Numbered from the stretch's first letter, positions 4,199 through 12,816 are shown. The stretch: DNA of 64,000 nucleotides from a virus (IMGVR_UViG_3300042870_001850:1-64000); one strand, 5' to 3'. The notes: a model not told the origin generated them from the letters alone. Translations and numbers: made by a program.

Positions 4199-4278
4199 CC
4201 ACCGTCTCATAGTCGGGCTCTATACCAGGCCGGGACTTCAAAAAGCCACCGTCAACGTATTCAGTTGCCTACTAGGCC
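4199..4278. repeat. tandem pair (47-nt period) of bipartite motif CCACCGTC-N16-TACYAGGCC
   Basis: Copies at 4199-4231 and 4246-4278, intergenic, with different spacers. Confidence 0.8.
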
Positions 4279-4295
4279 GGGTTTTTGTTTTTGTG

Positions 4296-4532
4296 CTAGA
4301 TCAGCACCTTTACTGTAGACTCTACAAATATGTGGCCTGAGTCGTTGCCTTCAGGGTCTGACGATGGGATCAAAGCAGTACCGTCATCAAGAATGATGAC
4401 CATAGGTACGCCTGAGAAGCTACCGTCCCAGCCGAAGTCTTCGCACTCACCGTTAGTCAGTGGTCGGACCGTCTTGATCTTGCGACCGACTAGTGCGCCG
4501 TATTCTCGTTTGATATATGCATCACGGTCCAT
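4296..4532 (-). CDS. hypothetical phage protein
   Basis: ORF track; motif at 4566. Confidence 0.75.
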   Translation of the reverse strand: MDRDAYIKREYGALVGRKIKTVRPLTNGECEDFGWDGSFSGVPMVIILDDGTALIPSSDPEGNDSGHIFVESTVKVLI

Positions 4533-4648
4533 TGTGTATCCTTTTGTCGTTGTGTTGATATGTTCATTATAACAACTTTAGAAAGAGAAGGGCCAGCACG
4601 GAGGAGGACGTAAAGGACAAGTAAACTACTCACCCCGTGCTGACGATC

Positions 4649-6457
4649 TTAGGCAGCCTTGCTGGATACCGTGGTCATTGCTTTCGCCGCAGCAGCGCCG
4701 ATCTCAGTGGCCACTGCAGCCGGGTCACGAACTCCCTTTAGAACAACCGCTGATGAACCTTTGCAGATTGCTGACGCGTACATACCGCCGCGACTATCAA
4801 ACGGAAGCCAAAGAACTCCGACACCAGCTTTGTCGCACTCATTCACCCAGCGGCGTGCTGCTTGTAGTTCTTGCTCTGTGTAGCAACCATCACTTACAAC
4901 TACCAGCATGCGAGCTCCTGAGCCATTCAACAAGTTGAGCGAACCATTCAATGCCTTGAACGCTTTGTCAAACTTCTCAGTCCCATCAGACGCGGTGTAC
5001 ACGTTGACTTTGTCAAGGTGCTGACCGGGCTTCAGAGTTGGGAAGACACCTTCGCCGTAGTACACCATCGCTGCGCGTGCTTGTATTCGGCGTGCTGCTT
5101 CGCTCATCACCCAAGCAGTAACTGCCATCGGGTTCATCGCTTCACTCATTGAACCGCTGATGTCAACCATCACGCCAATGTTAAGCGTTGGCTCGTCAGT
5201 GTGCTTGCGCACTGAGCGACGCCATGGCTCAACTTGAGTCATGATGCCCTTGCTCTTGAGTGCCGCACCTTGAACCATTGCACGAGTGCGAAGGCGTCCG
5301 GGAGGAACGATTGATGCAATCTCAACAACATCGCGCTCGCGATACTTTGCCTTCTCGAGAAGTCGTGCGACTGTGACAGCCGCTGCTCGTTCTTCCGCAG
5401 ACGGAGTACGCTCTTCAATGAGTCGGCTGCTGCTCTTGCCATCGGCCATTGGACCGGTGCCCTGGCCAAAGACTTCATTCGCAACACTCTCGTGTTCCTT
5501 CTGAGTCTTCGCTGAACTGCCGCGTTCCTTCGCGATCTCACTCCACTCTTCAGTGGTCTGTTGATCATCAAGATCTCCGCTAGCATTGATTGCTGCAGTG
5601 CCTGCTGCTTCTTCGAGTGCCTCGAGCATCTCGCCCATGATTCCGCCGGAACCTTCAGCGCCATTCTCATCAGGAGTGCCTTCGCCTGGATCAGGCTCGC
5701 CATTCTCTTCTGCTTGCTCGTTAACAATCTCAACCCACTTGCGTGCAAGCGGATACATTGCTGTTGCGTCAAGATGATTGTTGTGGTCCTGCGCCGCAAT
5801 CCAGATCTCGCGAAGCTTTGCAAGTGTCGCTGCGCCGAGCTTAGACTCAATGAGTGGAGTGATTGCTTCAATGTCTTCGTCTTGAAGAACACCCGCAGAG
5901 ACTCGTGCCATTGTGAGAGCAGCAATAGCTGCAGCAACTCGTGTGTCGCTTTCTTTGATTGCTTCTTCTTTAAGATCAGCAACTACAATCTCGAGCGCGC
6001 TTGCGCGAAGAAACGCTCTGTTCTCTGGCATGATAGTCACGCCATTGTATTCGATGCGTCCTTCTTCAAGATAGATAAGAGCTTTGAATTCAGCCGGCGA
6101 CAACGCATTGAACGCGGCTTCGATATCCCAGTTAGAGAAGCGAGCGTGAAGCGCTTCGTGAAAGATTGCGCCTGTAGCTTTTGGCCACTCGAATTGGTTT
6201 GAGCGAACTCGCAAGTCGCCGATTGTCTCGGGAGAGATATTGCCGCCGAAGGCAACTTCAACATTGACTTCAACTTCAGCAGTTGCTGGAGTGTAGCACG
6301 CTGGAGCAACTCCGCCGGCACCAGGTCCTACGTATCCCACGAGGTCGTGGCGATCTGCCCACTTGTTAGCGAGCTCTCCGACTGCAGCTCCGATGCCAAG
6401 CCACTCAACTGGCGTGGACTCTGCGCGAGTCTTTTTGTCGTATTTTAGATGTCCCAT
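4649..6457 (-). CDS. VWA (MIDAS) domain protein with N-terminal HExxH region, CobT-like partner of a MoxR ATPase
   Basis: DISGSMS MIDAS, VVSDG; HEALH...EEGRIE; adjacent to AAA+ gene. Confidence 0.85.
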   Translation of the reverse strand: MGHLKYDKKTRAESTPVEWLGIGAAVGELANKWADRHDLVGYVGPGAGGVAPACYTPATAEVEVNVEVAFGGNISPETIGDLRVRSNQFEWPKATGAIFHEALHARFSNWDIEAAFNALSPAEFKALIYLEEGRIEYNGVTIMPENRAFLRASALEIVVADLKEEAIKESDTRVAAAIAALTMARVSAGVLQDEDIEAITPLIESKLGAATLAKLREIWIAAQDHNNHLDATAMYPLARKWVEIVNEQAEENGEPDPGEGTPDENGAEGSGGIMGEMLEALEEAAGTAAINASGDLDDQQTTEEWSEIAKERGSSAKTQKEHESVANEVFGQGTGPMADGKSSSRLIEERTPSAEERAAAVTVARLLEKAKYRERDVVEIASIVPPGRLRTRAMVQGAALKSKGIMTQVEPWRRSVRKHTDEPTLNIGVMVDISGSMSEAMNPMAVTAWVMSEAARRIQARAAMVYYGEGVFPTLKPGQHLDKVNVYTASDGTEKFDKAFKALNGSLNLLNGSGARMLVVVSDGCYTEQELQAARRWVNECDKAGVGVLWLPFDSRGGMYASAICKGSSAVVLKGVRDPAAVATEIGAAAAKAMTTVSSKAA

Positions 6458-6506
6458 GTTTTGTCCTTTAGGTTTGTCCTTGTATAGATCATTATACCAA
6501 CTTTAG

Positions 6507-6550
6507 AAAATCAGCTGGCCGGCTCCCACCTACAGGAGCCAGCCGCTGAA
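6507..6550 (-). terminator. probable intrinsic terminator after the AAA+ gene
   Basis: GC-rich stem (GGCTCC/GGAGCC, TCAGC/GCTGA) followed by TTTT on the minus strand. Confidence 0.5.
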
Positions 6551-11036: not shown

Positions 11037-11188
11037 TACTTGGTTTCCTTCTTTTGCTTTTCCTCAAGAAACCTGATGCAGTCCTCTGCTATTTCTCTCT
11101 GCTTGAAGTAGCGAACACCTGTCGGGGTCACTACGTTCCAGGCAAATGAGCCGCGTTCTAGTTTGAAGTTTTTCGTCGTTGTTTCCAT
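11036..11188 (-). CDS. 50-aa leaderless protein METTTKNFKLERGSFAWNVV... (not in ORF track)
   Basis: ATG 6 nt after motif 11195. Confidence 0.7.
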   Translation of the reverse strand: METTTKNFKLERGSFAWNVVTPTGVRYFKQREIAEDCIRFLEEKQKKETK

Positions 11189-11206
11189 GTAGTCATTATA
11201 ACAACT

Positions 11207-11467
11207 TTAGAATTCGTCAGAGTCCATCCCGATCATCCACTCTCGCGGATAAATCAAAGGGAACGCGCAGTCAATGCAAATTGGCCATTTGACATCTTCA
11301 TTGTCGGAAACAATTGCGCAGGGAAAAAATTCATCAGCAATTGGGCCAATAACCATTCCACAGTTTTCACACTCGCCGGCGTCAATAATGAAATCGAAAA
11401 TCCCTTGTTGAGCCGCGATAATCGCGTCAACAGCATTTTCAACGACAATGATGTCAAACGAGACCAT
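11207..11467 (-). CDS. acidic Zn-ribbon-like protein
   Basis: CENC...CIDC; stop inside motif 11195. Confidence 0.7.
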   Translation of the reverse strand: MVSFDIIVVENAVDAIIAAQQGIFDFIIDAGECENCGMVIGPIADEFFPCAIVSDNEDVKWPICIDCAFPLIYPREWMIGMDSDEF

Positions 11468-11502
11468 GACCTAATCTACCAGGTCATGACTCGTTTGCGA
11501 AG

Positions 11503-12093
11503 TTACGCCAGCGTTATTTTAATTGCTGCAAGCTTTGTCTCGAGAATTGAGATCTGCGCTTGTAACTCGAGAGTGCGTAATCTGACGATCTCGTCGATGA
11601 GAGATGAAACTTCCACCGTCACACCTTTTGAAGTCGCTACTAGGCCTGAAGTTTTTTTCGGCTTGTTTTTCGATCCCTTAGGACGACCAACTTTGCCGCT
11701 AGCTCTTTTAGCCGTCTTTGATCGGTGCTCAAGCGATACGCCTGGAATTGCTTCAGCTACCGTTCGTGCTGGTACACGCTTACCGTGAGTCCAGTAGAAA
11801 GTTGCAAGATATCCGCGTGATGCTTTTCCGTTTGCGCGAAGTAGTCGTTCTTCCACCGTCTCAACTCTGGTGCTTACCAGGCCTGAAGTTTGAAGTTCTT
11901 GCAGAACAAGTCGGATGTGGCTCTGGTCAATACGTCGTTCGAGCAGTTGCTCGGTCGATCGGTTGATCTCGAGAACCGTCAGCGGCTGCTTCGCGTCGTC
12001 AAGAACCATCTTGACTCCTTGTCGCACCGAGCTACCGATCATACGGCGGGCCTCGATGAAAGGCTGAAGCTGGGTTGGTATTTGTTTATTCAT
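11503..12093 (-). CDS. putative DNA-binding protein (wHTH-like N-terminus, AT-hook-like GRPKGSKNK, coiled-coil C-terminus)
   Basis: Sequence motifs; AGGAG RBS; motif at 12124. Confidence 0.65.
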   Translation of the reverse strand: MNKQIPTQLQPFIEARRMIGSSVRQGVKMVLDDAKQPLTVLEINRSTEQLLERRIDQSHIRLVLQELQTSGLVSTRVETVEERLLRANGKASRGYLATFYWTHGKRVPARTVAEAIPGVSLEHRSKTAKRASGKVGRPKGSKNKPKKTSGLVATSKGVTVEVSSLIDEIVRLRTLELQAQISILETKLAAIKITLA

Positions 12094-12816
12094 TATTTCT
12101 CCTGTGTCGTTAGGTATGTGATCATTATATCATCTTTAGATTCTCGATGTAGGCAGTTCGGACTTTTTTATCCAGCCGCCTTTGCCATCGTCTCTCCAGC
12201 TCATGGAGATAACTATAACATCTTTAGATTCTAATTTTCAATGATTGTTAATTAGCAACGATTGTAAATAAGCCAGAATCTCGCCCGAGTTTTTCAAGGC
12301 TCGATAAATCGGGAATTCCTGTTGCACTTGTCATGACGTATCCCGACATTCGTTGCCAACGTGCGTAAGCGTCTTTAGTTGCAGAATCGAAAACGCCGGC
12401 TGTAAATCCACGAAGGTCAGTAAACTGCTCAAGCGCAAGTTGTACCGTCGCAATATCCCGACCCTTCCTTCCAGGCCTGACGTTTGAAAACTTTAGCTCA
12501 ATAGCCACCGTCTCACTTATAGCCTTACTACTAGGCCGGGCTTTGAAATCTGGTCGTCCAAATCCAATGACATCGTAAATCCAACGTTCACGTAAATGTA
12601 CACCGTCACGGTCCTGAGATCCTTTAGGTAGGCCTGAACTTACGTTACCTTCCACCGTCATGAATCTGTCGGTCATACGTACGCCTGTAGTGTCTACAAC
12701 TATGCCACAATGCGGAGTACCGAAATCTTTGTCCGTCGCAAATCCGAAGAAGACAATGTCTCCAGGCCGCGGTCTAAACTTCAACCGTCCCTGTTGAGAG
12801 AACTCCGCTAGGCCTG
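11613..12816. repeat. cluster of the bipartite CCACCGTC...TACYAGGCC motif embedded in two CDS
   Basis: Full copies at 11613-11646, 11853-11883, 12505-12537; weaker RCCGTC-N20-23-A[GC]GCCTG copies at 11711, 12444, 12602, 12654, 12784. Confidence 0.7.
12136..12204 (-). CDS. 22-aa micropeptide MSWRDDGKGGWIKKSELPTSRI
   Basis: ATG 7 nt after motif 12212; stop inside motif 12124. Confidence 0.5.
   Translation of the reverse strand: MSWRDDGKGGWIKKSELPTSRI

Follow-up and report, generated by a model that had tools for sequence, protein, structure and literature searches.

A strand-locked, two-part DNA motif clustered in and between genes of lake actinobacterial phages

In Cluster A mycobacteriophages, the operators/stoperators recognized by the L5 gp71 and TipsytheTRex repressors are asymmetric sites whose orientation tracks transcription, and they occur at promoters and elsewhere inside transcription units. 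According to PMC9283540, the site is a contiguous 13-bp sequence whose copies, numbering over 20, are spread across the genome and occupy short gaps between genes, and the binder in these temperate phages is a monomer that carries a helix-turn-helix and a stoperator domain, i.e., two separate DNA-reading parts for one asymmetric site. In the middle promoters of phage T4, as described in PMC2988021 and PMC6755090, the MotA box stands in for the -35 element. Its distance from the host-type -10 or extended -10 hexamer is fixed, and it singles out certain promoters for use by an early protein of the phage; it is a single 9-bp element located 12 ± 1 bp from the -10 element of approximately 60 promoters (PMC2988021). 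Here, we describe a two-part motif in the sequence IMGVR_UViG_3300042870_001850:1-64000, a stretch of 64,000 nucleotides (nt), hereafter the window, which is the first 64 kb of the 83,311-base genome of an uncultured lake actinobacterial phage. The motif is real and, as far as its sequence constraint is concerned, acts at the DNA level; it keeps to a single strand, and its conservation extends over a clade. Stoperators and MotA promoters are the closest known systems, and, on the comparison made below, the element is distinct from both. Our targeted literature searching found no published description of it.

Between position 1 and approximately 16.9 kb of the window, the genes are on the - strand, and the motif is located among them. 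A first-pass annotation of the window had reported five full copies in a single orientation; we recovered all five, in that orientation, at 4199-4231, 4246-4278, 11613-11646, 11853-11883 and 12505-12537, with the reported spacers of 16, 16, 17, 14 and 16 nt, respectively. Read on the gene (-) strand, these strong copies have the form GGCCTRGTA-N14-17-GACGGTGG, for which the expected number is 0 (none in 100 dinucleotide shuffles). The left nonamer occurs seven times genome-wide, always on the - strand, and five of these occurrences are motif copies, while the window contains 12 right octamers, six of them within the clusters, against 0.92 expected. The copies at 4199..4231 and 4246..4278 (copies 1 and 2) are intergenic and arranged in tandem, with copy 2 located 47 nt upstream of copy 1. 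Those at 11613..11646 and 11853..11883 lie in the gene of a 196-amino-acid (aa) protein with a predicted winged helix and an AT-hook (11503..12093, - strand), where they encode residues 149-161, a linker predicted to be disordered, and residues 70-81 of the wing region. The remaining strong copy, 12505..12537, encodes in a different frame (R-P-S ... E-T-V) the inter-domain linker of a lysin-like protein assigned to PHROG endolysin families (12248..13024, - strand).

Using the relaxed pattern GGC[CG]T-N16-28-GACGG[TC], we identified 11 copies, all on the - strand, confined to positions 4201-4412, 11615-11883 and 12444-12814 and separated by irregular copy-to-copy distances of 47-141 nt. Since this pattern has only one match elsewhere on either strand of the complete genome, the earlier statement that the window contains no other paired copy holds. 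For the comparison between phages, we used the common form GGCCYRG-N12-26-GACSG, whose eight matches in this genome are all on the gene strand in the three clusters, against 0.33 expected.

The first-pass annotation had named a lack of enrichment over codon-preserving shuffles as grounds for refutation, and the motif stays enriched in both genes. Among 2000 shuffles per gene, which keep the protein and the codon usage, none reached the five relaxed copies of the lysin-like gene (mean 0.19) or the three of the 196-aa gene (mean 0.14). The copy at 4380, in a 78-aa gene, is at chance level, as its count was reached in 852 of 2000 shuffles. Additionally, the GACGGT half was found, as first reported, in all three reading frames of the lysin-like gene, where it reads T-V, D-G and G-R. 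Because the motif uses three frames, exceeds synonymous shuffles and is kept where the amino acids differ, it is a DNA-level element and not a peptide motif, in agreement with the first-pass annotation. An avoidance of GGCC was considered as an explanation and rejected, given that this tetramer is just mildly under-represented (159 observed, 187-226 expected). A terminator reading was also discarded, as no terminator-like site was found at the copies on the gene strand. The sequencing runs listed as containing this phage are 24 DNA runs, with no RNA run among them. Among the best-supported entries listed for the reads of four sequencing runs, none falls within a motif copy.

The nearest named relative is Actinomycetia phage DSL-LC01, a metagenome-assembled lake phage that is syntenic across this region. 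Identity to it is 79% for a 314-aa protein encoded upstream of the lysin-like gene (13165..14109, - strand), 57% for the lysin-like protein and 34% for the 196-aa protein. The excerpted text of the paper on DSL-LC01 labels the phage lysogenic on software prediction alone, groups its large terminase next to Microbacterium phage terminases and, in that excerpt, does not mention the motif. DSL-LC01 contains 18 common-form matches (about 12 distinct) against 1.2 expected, and 15 of the 18 are on the gene strand in three orthologous clusters, namely, the lysin gene, the homologue of the 196-aa gene and the intergenic counterpart of 4199-4278. In the codon alignment, the linker copy of the lysin-like gene is kept, the peptide being R-P-S-S-K-A-I-S-E-T-V here and R-P-G-K-D-I-V-K-T-L-T-D in DSL-LC01. 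A second relative, the 1,286-base metagenome fragment L029, keeps copies in both genes. The intergenic array of DSL-LC01 is headed, directly after the stop codon of the 78-aa homologue (21650-21710), by an 11-bp perfect inverted repeat (GCTGACGGTCA ... TGACCGTCAGC) around a GGCCC-rich loop, with right-half letters in both orientations.

The first-pass annotation had also listed six weaker copies, and these fared unevenly. A weight matrix derived from nothing but the strong copies supports three of the weaker ones, reported at 12444, 12602 and 12784, with summed scores of 20.4 (12440..12480, -), 17.4 (12598..12637, -) and 18.7 (12780..12817, -), while just three other pairs in the genome, counting both strands, score at least 17; at the listing threshold of 11, null genomes yield 34-50 pairs. 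The first of these copies is found at the same position in DSL-LC01, the second is kept in DSL-LC01 and in fragment L029, and the third preserves GACGG in DSL-LC01 despite a Gly-to-Arg change (GGA to AGA in the codon alignment). The copies at 4380, 11711 and 12654 missed the threshold of 11. We do not retain the first two, and the third (12651..12685, -) is doubtful, as it combines an exact right half (GACGGTGG) with a weak left half (GGCGT) and is absent in DSL-LC01. Another doubtful copy with a long spacer, 12728..12771 (-), overlaps the conserved peptide R-P-G-D-I-V-F-F, so its letters may be driven by the protein sequence.

To place the motif in a wider set, we used the 314-aa protein, the anchor of a conserved module whose order in the clade is 314-aa gene, lysin-like gene and winged-helix gene. 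Its family comprises 2023 proteins at E ≤ 0.001, the best 120 of which are all at least 70% identical. With this protein we retrieved 64 IMG/VR loci, which were reduced to 49 (806 kb) by the removal of near-duplicates. In these 49 loci, we counted 63 common-form matches on the gene strand and a single one on the opposite strand (83 and 2 before dereplication), compared with 18 and 3 for a control pattern with swapped halves and 4 and 6 for one with reversed letters. Based on the start of the 314-aa gene, 54 of the 63 gene-strand matches are located between +900 and +3000, a span that accounts for 95 kb of the 806 kb. Across 51 sources, 65 of 70 array copies lie inside open reading frames (ORFs), and both halves occupy all three codon phases (37/20/8 for the left half and 23/18/24 for the right half). 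The spacer ranges from 12 to 26 nt, with a mode at 18 nt (24 pairs, against at most 4 per bin in the control) and a shoulder from 16 to 26 nt.

The two halves differ in their conservation. The left half is constant across lineages as GGCCTGG(TA), while the right half is lineage-dependent: GACGGTGG in this phage, GACCGTGAG or GACGGACGAG in DSL-LC01 and GCAGACGG(G/A) in the loci L046-L051. The resulting consensus is (Y)C(M)GGCCYRG(TA) for the left half and (T/A)GAC[C/G]G(TG) for the right half. A scan of IMG/VR with the exact motif returned 16 contigs with one match each, none with an array, which we take as chance level. On the sequences compared, the motif is a clade-wide feature of the lake actinophages that share the three-gene module.

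The position of the motif relative to promoters was analyzed with the early promoter box TCTAAAGWTGWTATAAT, an extended -10 element with 24 copies on the - strand, all located from 64 to 12228 and amounting to roughly one for each small early gene; none is found upstream of 12228. DSL-LC01 has 33 copies, from 22606 to 43302. In this phage (12228 and 12140), in DSL-LC01 (22606) and in L046, the first early promoter or promoters directly precede the winged-helix gene, and the lysin-like gene, located upstream of them, has no early promoter in any of the three; thus, the arrays flank the first early promoters. In the window, these first two promoters (12212-12228 and 12124-12140, -) are situated between the array of the lysin-like gene and that of the winged-helix gene. 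The sequence between the tandem promoters (12141-12211, -) holds a hairpin with a perfect 6-bp stem (TCTCCA..TGGAGA) and what may be a mini-ORF of 11 codons.

Copy 1 forms a composite with the promoter at 4178-4194 (-; TCTAAAGAAGATACAAT, two mismatches to the 24-copy consensus), which serves the gene of a 73-aa acidic protein (3958-4179, -). The copy ends 8 nt before the box at 4194, which places GACGG 18 nt from the -10 hexamer, at approximately -35. Within the 45 nt upstream of 112 early-promoter boxes, GACSG occurs nine times, and seven of the nine occurrences are exactly 8-9 nt from the box: one in this phage, two in DSL-LC01, one in L043 and three in L046. The geometry of copy 1 is also seen in L048. 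Moreover, a TANNNT hexamer follows the right half by 17-19 nt in 7 of the 22 copies beyond +3000, compared with 1 of the 107 gene-internal array copies. No promoter composites were seen in lineages with another promoter consensus (..ACC-TGWTATAAT). Exact phasing of this kind argues for an operator or activator site and not for a packaging or replication signal; together with the arrays flanking the first early promoters, it points to transcription control in place of the packaging, replication, partition or DNA-entry roles that the first-pass annotation had named as options.

Set beside the known systems, the element shares some defining features and lacks others, and for this reason we do not file it as a member of any of them. 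As with the stoperators, the sites track the strand of transcription (all eight here and 63 to 1 in the clade) and occur both at promoters (seven) and within ORFs. Nevertheless, the contiguous 13-bp site with more than 20 dispersed intergenic copies was not found; here, two halves about 18 nt apart occur in 8-10 copies, in three clusters, and mostly inside genes. The candidate binder is predicted to have a PadR-like winged helix and a long helix, and no lysogeny module was seen. The likeness to MotA, whose fold is a double wing, is drawn from the promoter layout, i.e., the fixed position of GACSG in seven of nine occurrences. Additionally, the two-part element reaches to approximately -60, is present on just 7 of the 112 early promoter boxes and has most of its copies away from promoters, whereas the MotA box is essentially a promoter element. 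No AsiA-like partner is known here, and none was searched for.

The best candidate for a binder is, as the first-pass annotation had suggested, the AT-hook protein encoded at 11503..12093, the product of the first early gene. Its structure was modelled from a wider alignment of 29 sequences (predicted local distance difference test, pLDDT, of 82), replacing a poor earlier model built from 19 close homologues (pLDDT 56.6). The model shows residues 10-120 folded as a winged helix; they are followed by a basic linker that is disordered and contains the AT-hook (128-160) and by a long C-terminal helix (158-195). The nearest solved folds found with Foldseek are the DNA-binding domains of PadR/LmrR and Fur and the winged helix of Orc1/Cdc6, with template-modelling (TM) scores of 0.56-0.62 by target. 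Sequence searches of the PDB gave nothing useful. The protein has 19 homologues in the protein database (close relatives 77-93% identical) and one relative in metagenome contigs, fragment L029; searches of viral contigs returned just low-complexity AT-hook matches, and those of genome contigs, none. The letters 'SGLV...TVE' encoded by the copy at 11613-11646 are kept in 17 of 19 aligned sequences (the protein itself and 16 of 18 homologues). In the two most distant homologues both copies are altered in parallel, with TVE changed to TDQ, and in L046 the motif is present at the same place in another frame, read as R-P-G-K.

A profile search located the winged-helix gene right after the lysin gene in 26 of the 49 loci. 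Counting the loci with enough downstream DNA, the motif is present in 19 of 24 loci with the winged-helix gene (mean 1.79 copies) and in 5 of 19 without it (mean 0.26), in raw counts uncorrected for shared ancestry. The 314-aa product of 13165..14109, which the first-pass annotation had also put forward, is a weaker candidate, given that every one of the 49 loci has its gene and the motif is nevertheless missing from 14 of the 19 without the winged-helix gene. This protein contains a Cys/His cluster (a weak DUF5763 match) and a helical C-terminal part.

Based on these sequence comparisons and on the model, we propose that the motif copies are operator-like sites of the 196-aa winged-helix/AT-hook/long-helix protein, a reading to which we assign a probability of about 0.5. 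An array of protein-binding sites, the first suggestion made for these repeats, thus remains the best reading of the sequence. Each copy would be a double-stranded-DNA docking site with two unlike halves, a preferred gap of 18 nt and an orientation that follows early transcription. At the promoter-proximal copies, the right half would lie over the -35 region and the left half near -60, so that the bound protein could switch a subset of early promoters on or off. The arrays in the lysin-like gene and in the protein's own gene, on either side of the first early promoters, would then provide autoregulation; alternatively, they might impose a polar block on transcription that passes the point where the promoter-less lysin unit meets the early unit.

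Several observations weigh against this proposal. More than 200 nt separate the last copy of the lysin array from the first early promoter downstream of it, a long distance for a classical operator, and copies abutting promoters were seen in no lineages other than those with the CTAAAG-type promoter. The matches found with Foldseek, one of which is an origin-binding winged helix, are weak (best E-value 8.5e-3). Five loci with the winged-helix gene show no motif under the pattern used, and the co-occurrence ignores shared ancestry, the loci without this gene being also more distant. Furthermore, the left half is nearly invariant, yet the winged-helix protein is 24-36% identical across lineages, compared with 58-80% for the 314-aa protein; an invariant left half next to a divergent protein would fit a better-conserved or host-encoded binder. 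Finally, the docking site is read from nucleotide patterns, from which we infer protein binding.

The remaining explanations can be weighed on the same evidence. If the sites were iteron-like elements of a replication origin, the winged-helix protein would be an initiator that binds direct repeats near and inside its own gene, and the AT-rich segment 12094-12247, with its two promoters between the two arrays, would serve as a zone of unwinding and transcriptional activation. In phage lambda, the O gene contains the replication origin, and the Rep proteins of plasmids are winged-helix binders of asymmetric iterons that can also repress. The repeats described here likewise share one orientation and adjoin or lie inside the gene of a winged-helix protein, and the top fold matches of this protein include the winged helix of an archaeal Orc1/Cdc6 in complex with origin DNA. 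Nevertheless, the regular phasing of about 22 bp typical of iterons is replaced by irregular distances, copies extend into the neighbouring enzyme gene, the primase-helicase is encoded approximately 26 kb away and the fixed 18-nt distance to -10 elements at other promoters would be unexpected, which makes an origin unlikely. A packaging or genome-end nucleoprotein signal, read by the 314-aa protein as a candidate small terminase, would place the region at the leading end of a long terminal repeat. A homologue of the 314-aa protein is gene 1 of the long-terminal-repeat Microbacterium phages Pumpernickel and Cece (genomes of roughly 190 kb), 62-63 nt from the physical left end, and is annotated as the small terminase subunit in the Cece record; a weak Atlas structural lead points to Terminase_2 (TM 0.43 by row). 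Both ends of Pumpernickel carry gene 1, the lysin gene and some 50 small genes, as a repeat of approximately 20 kb. Apart from packaging, the homology to gene 1, the Pumpernickel repeat and the kinship of the DSL-LC01 terminase make it probable that the motif region forms the leading part of a terminal repeat rich in early genes. The arrays always begin just downstream of the 314-aa gene, and in Pumpernickel the sequence RACCGTG occurs seven times on the gene strand within the 1.8 kb after gene 1 (1303-3140) and then not for 24 kb. This sequence resembles the right half of DSL-LC01 and has no left half alongside; it could be a distant echo or a coincidence. Two-part arrays were not found in Pumpernickel and Cece, which show just the RACCGT(G) enrichment; the motif is mostly absent from loci that have the 314-aa gene without the winged-helix gene (14 of 19); the distance of the sites from the presumed end is 1-2.5 kb, with a further group some 9.8 kb downstream from where the 314-aa gene starts; and the promoter phasing lacks a packaging rationale. 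We therefore give a packaging signal little credence.

A small RNA element, the other option raised in the first-pass annotation, is not supported by the analysis. Rfam gave no match, the intergenic pair of the window folds no better than shuffles (z = +0.9), nine single units of the window have folding z values of -1.2 to +1.8, and, in 86 copies, the closing stem (the flank and first G paired with CGG and its flank) has a mean of 2.29 pairs against 2.19 ± 0.08 for shuffled partners, i.e., no overall covariation. On these grounds, we treat the element as double-stranded DNA. If early transcripts carried a linear two-part site for a processing nuclease or an RNA-binding protein, this would account for the strand lock and would tolerate the flexible spacer; additionally, the GCAGACGG sub-lineage shows a marginal excess of closing-stem pairs (4.0 vs 3.73, reached by 151 of 5000 shuffles), and the DSL-LC01 intergenic region folds strongly (z = -5.0), with stems that are not common to the window. 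However, copies that abut a promoter lie upstream of where that promoter starts transcription, and we regard an RNA site of this kind as improbable. Even less credible is a reading of every copy as a promoter in its own right, recognized by a modified or alternative RNA polymerase holoenzyme, with a -35-like left half and a -10-like right half. The two unlike halves with a preferred gap, the co-orientation with genes and the location of some copies upstream of genes would suit it, but five to six copies running through one gene body follow no promoter logic, and tandem promoters leave the exact 8-9 nt distance to the following promoter box unexplained. Among the 30 larger products scanned, a scan that did not extend to small ORFs, we detected no family of sigma factors or RNA polymerases, and, to our knowledge, the motif halves match no known actinobacterial sigma consensus.

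Returning to the operator-like sites of the winged-helix protein, a bolder version, which we consider doubtful, would make the arrays a polarity-dependent gate placed in the lysin coding sequence, at the border between a promoter-less, probably late and terminus-proximal unit and the early unit of a long-terminal-repeat phage. A single early winged-helix protein would hold back lysin transcription and take over the -35 region of chosen early promoters, as an actinophage counterpart of sigma appropriation, maybe tuned to the modified cytosines of the phage.

Other features of the region and genome complete the setting. The products encoded in the window include an AAA ATPase, a VWA protein, ribonucleotide reductase and tail proteins, in addition to the lysin-like protein and the primase-helicase, and the phage genome also encodes a small serine recombinase. 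Just upstream of the 314-aa gene, a 91-aa protein (14192-14467, -) consists mostly of A-K-K-A/P-A-K-K repeats and resembles histone H1 or the tails of actinobacterial HU proteins; DSL-LC01 has a counterpart at the same position. In 43 of 50 sources, the sequence C[CT]CTC[CT]CC is located 40-175 nt upstream of the 314-aa gene (approximately 14115-14190, -, in the window; 20612-20680 in L030; also in L036-L099). In about 36 of the 50, it occupies the loop of a near-perfect hairpin of 13-17 bp (RNAfold, -21 to -37 kcal/mol), whose stem letters vary by lineage yet remain complementary (strong covariation), whose loop CCTCTCCCC is conserved and which is in many cases followed by a T run. Possible roles for this hairpin are those of a terminator whose loop is functional, of a terminus signal or of a decoy resembling an anti-Shine-Dalgarno sequence.

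For the abundant uncultured phages that infect lake actinobacteria, gene control is essentially uncharted territory, and the motif offers a concrete clade-wide cis-element with a named candidate protein and defined promoters. Regulatory DNA that is kept inside an enzyme coding sequence, in all three frames and over deep divergence, would also be a useful case of overlapping codes. If the arrays are tied to the leading end of the terminal repeat, the element would bear on the timing of lysin expression and on the early takeover of the host by these phages.

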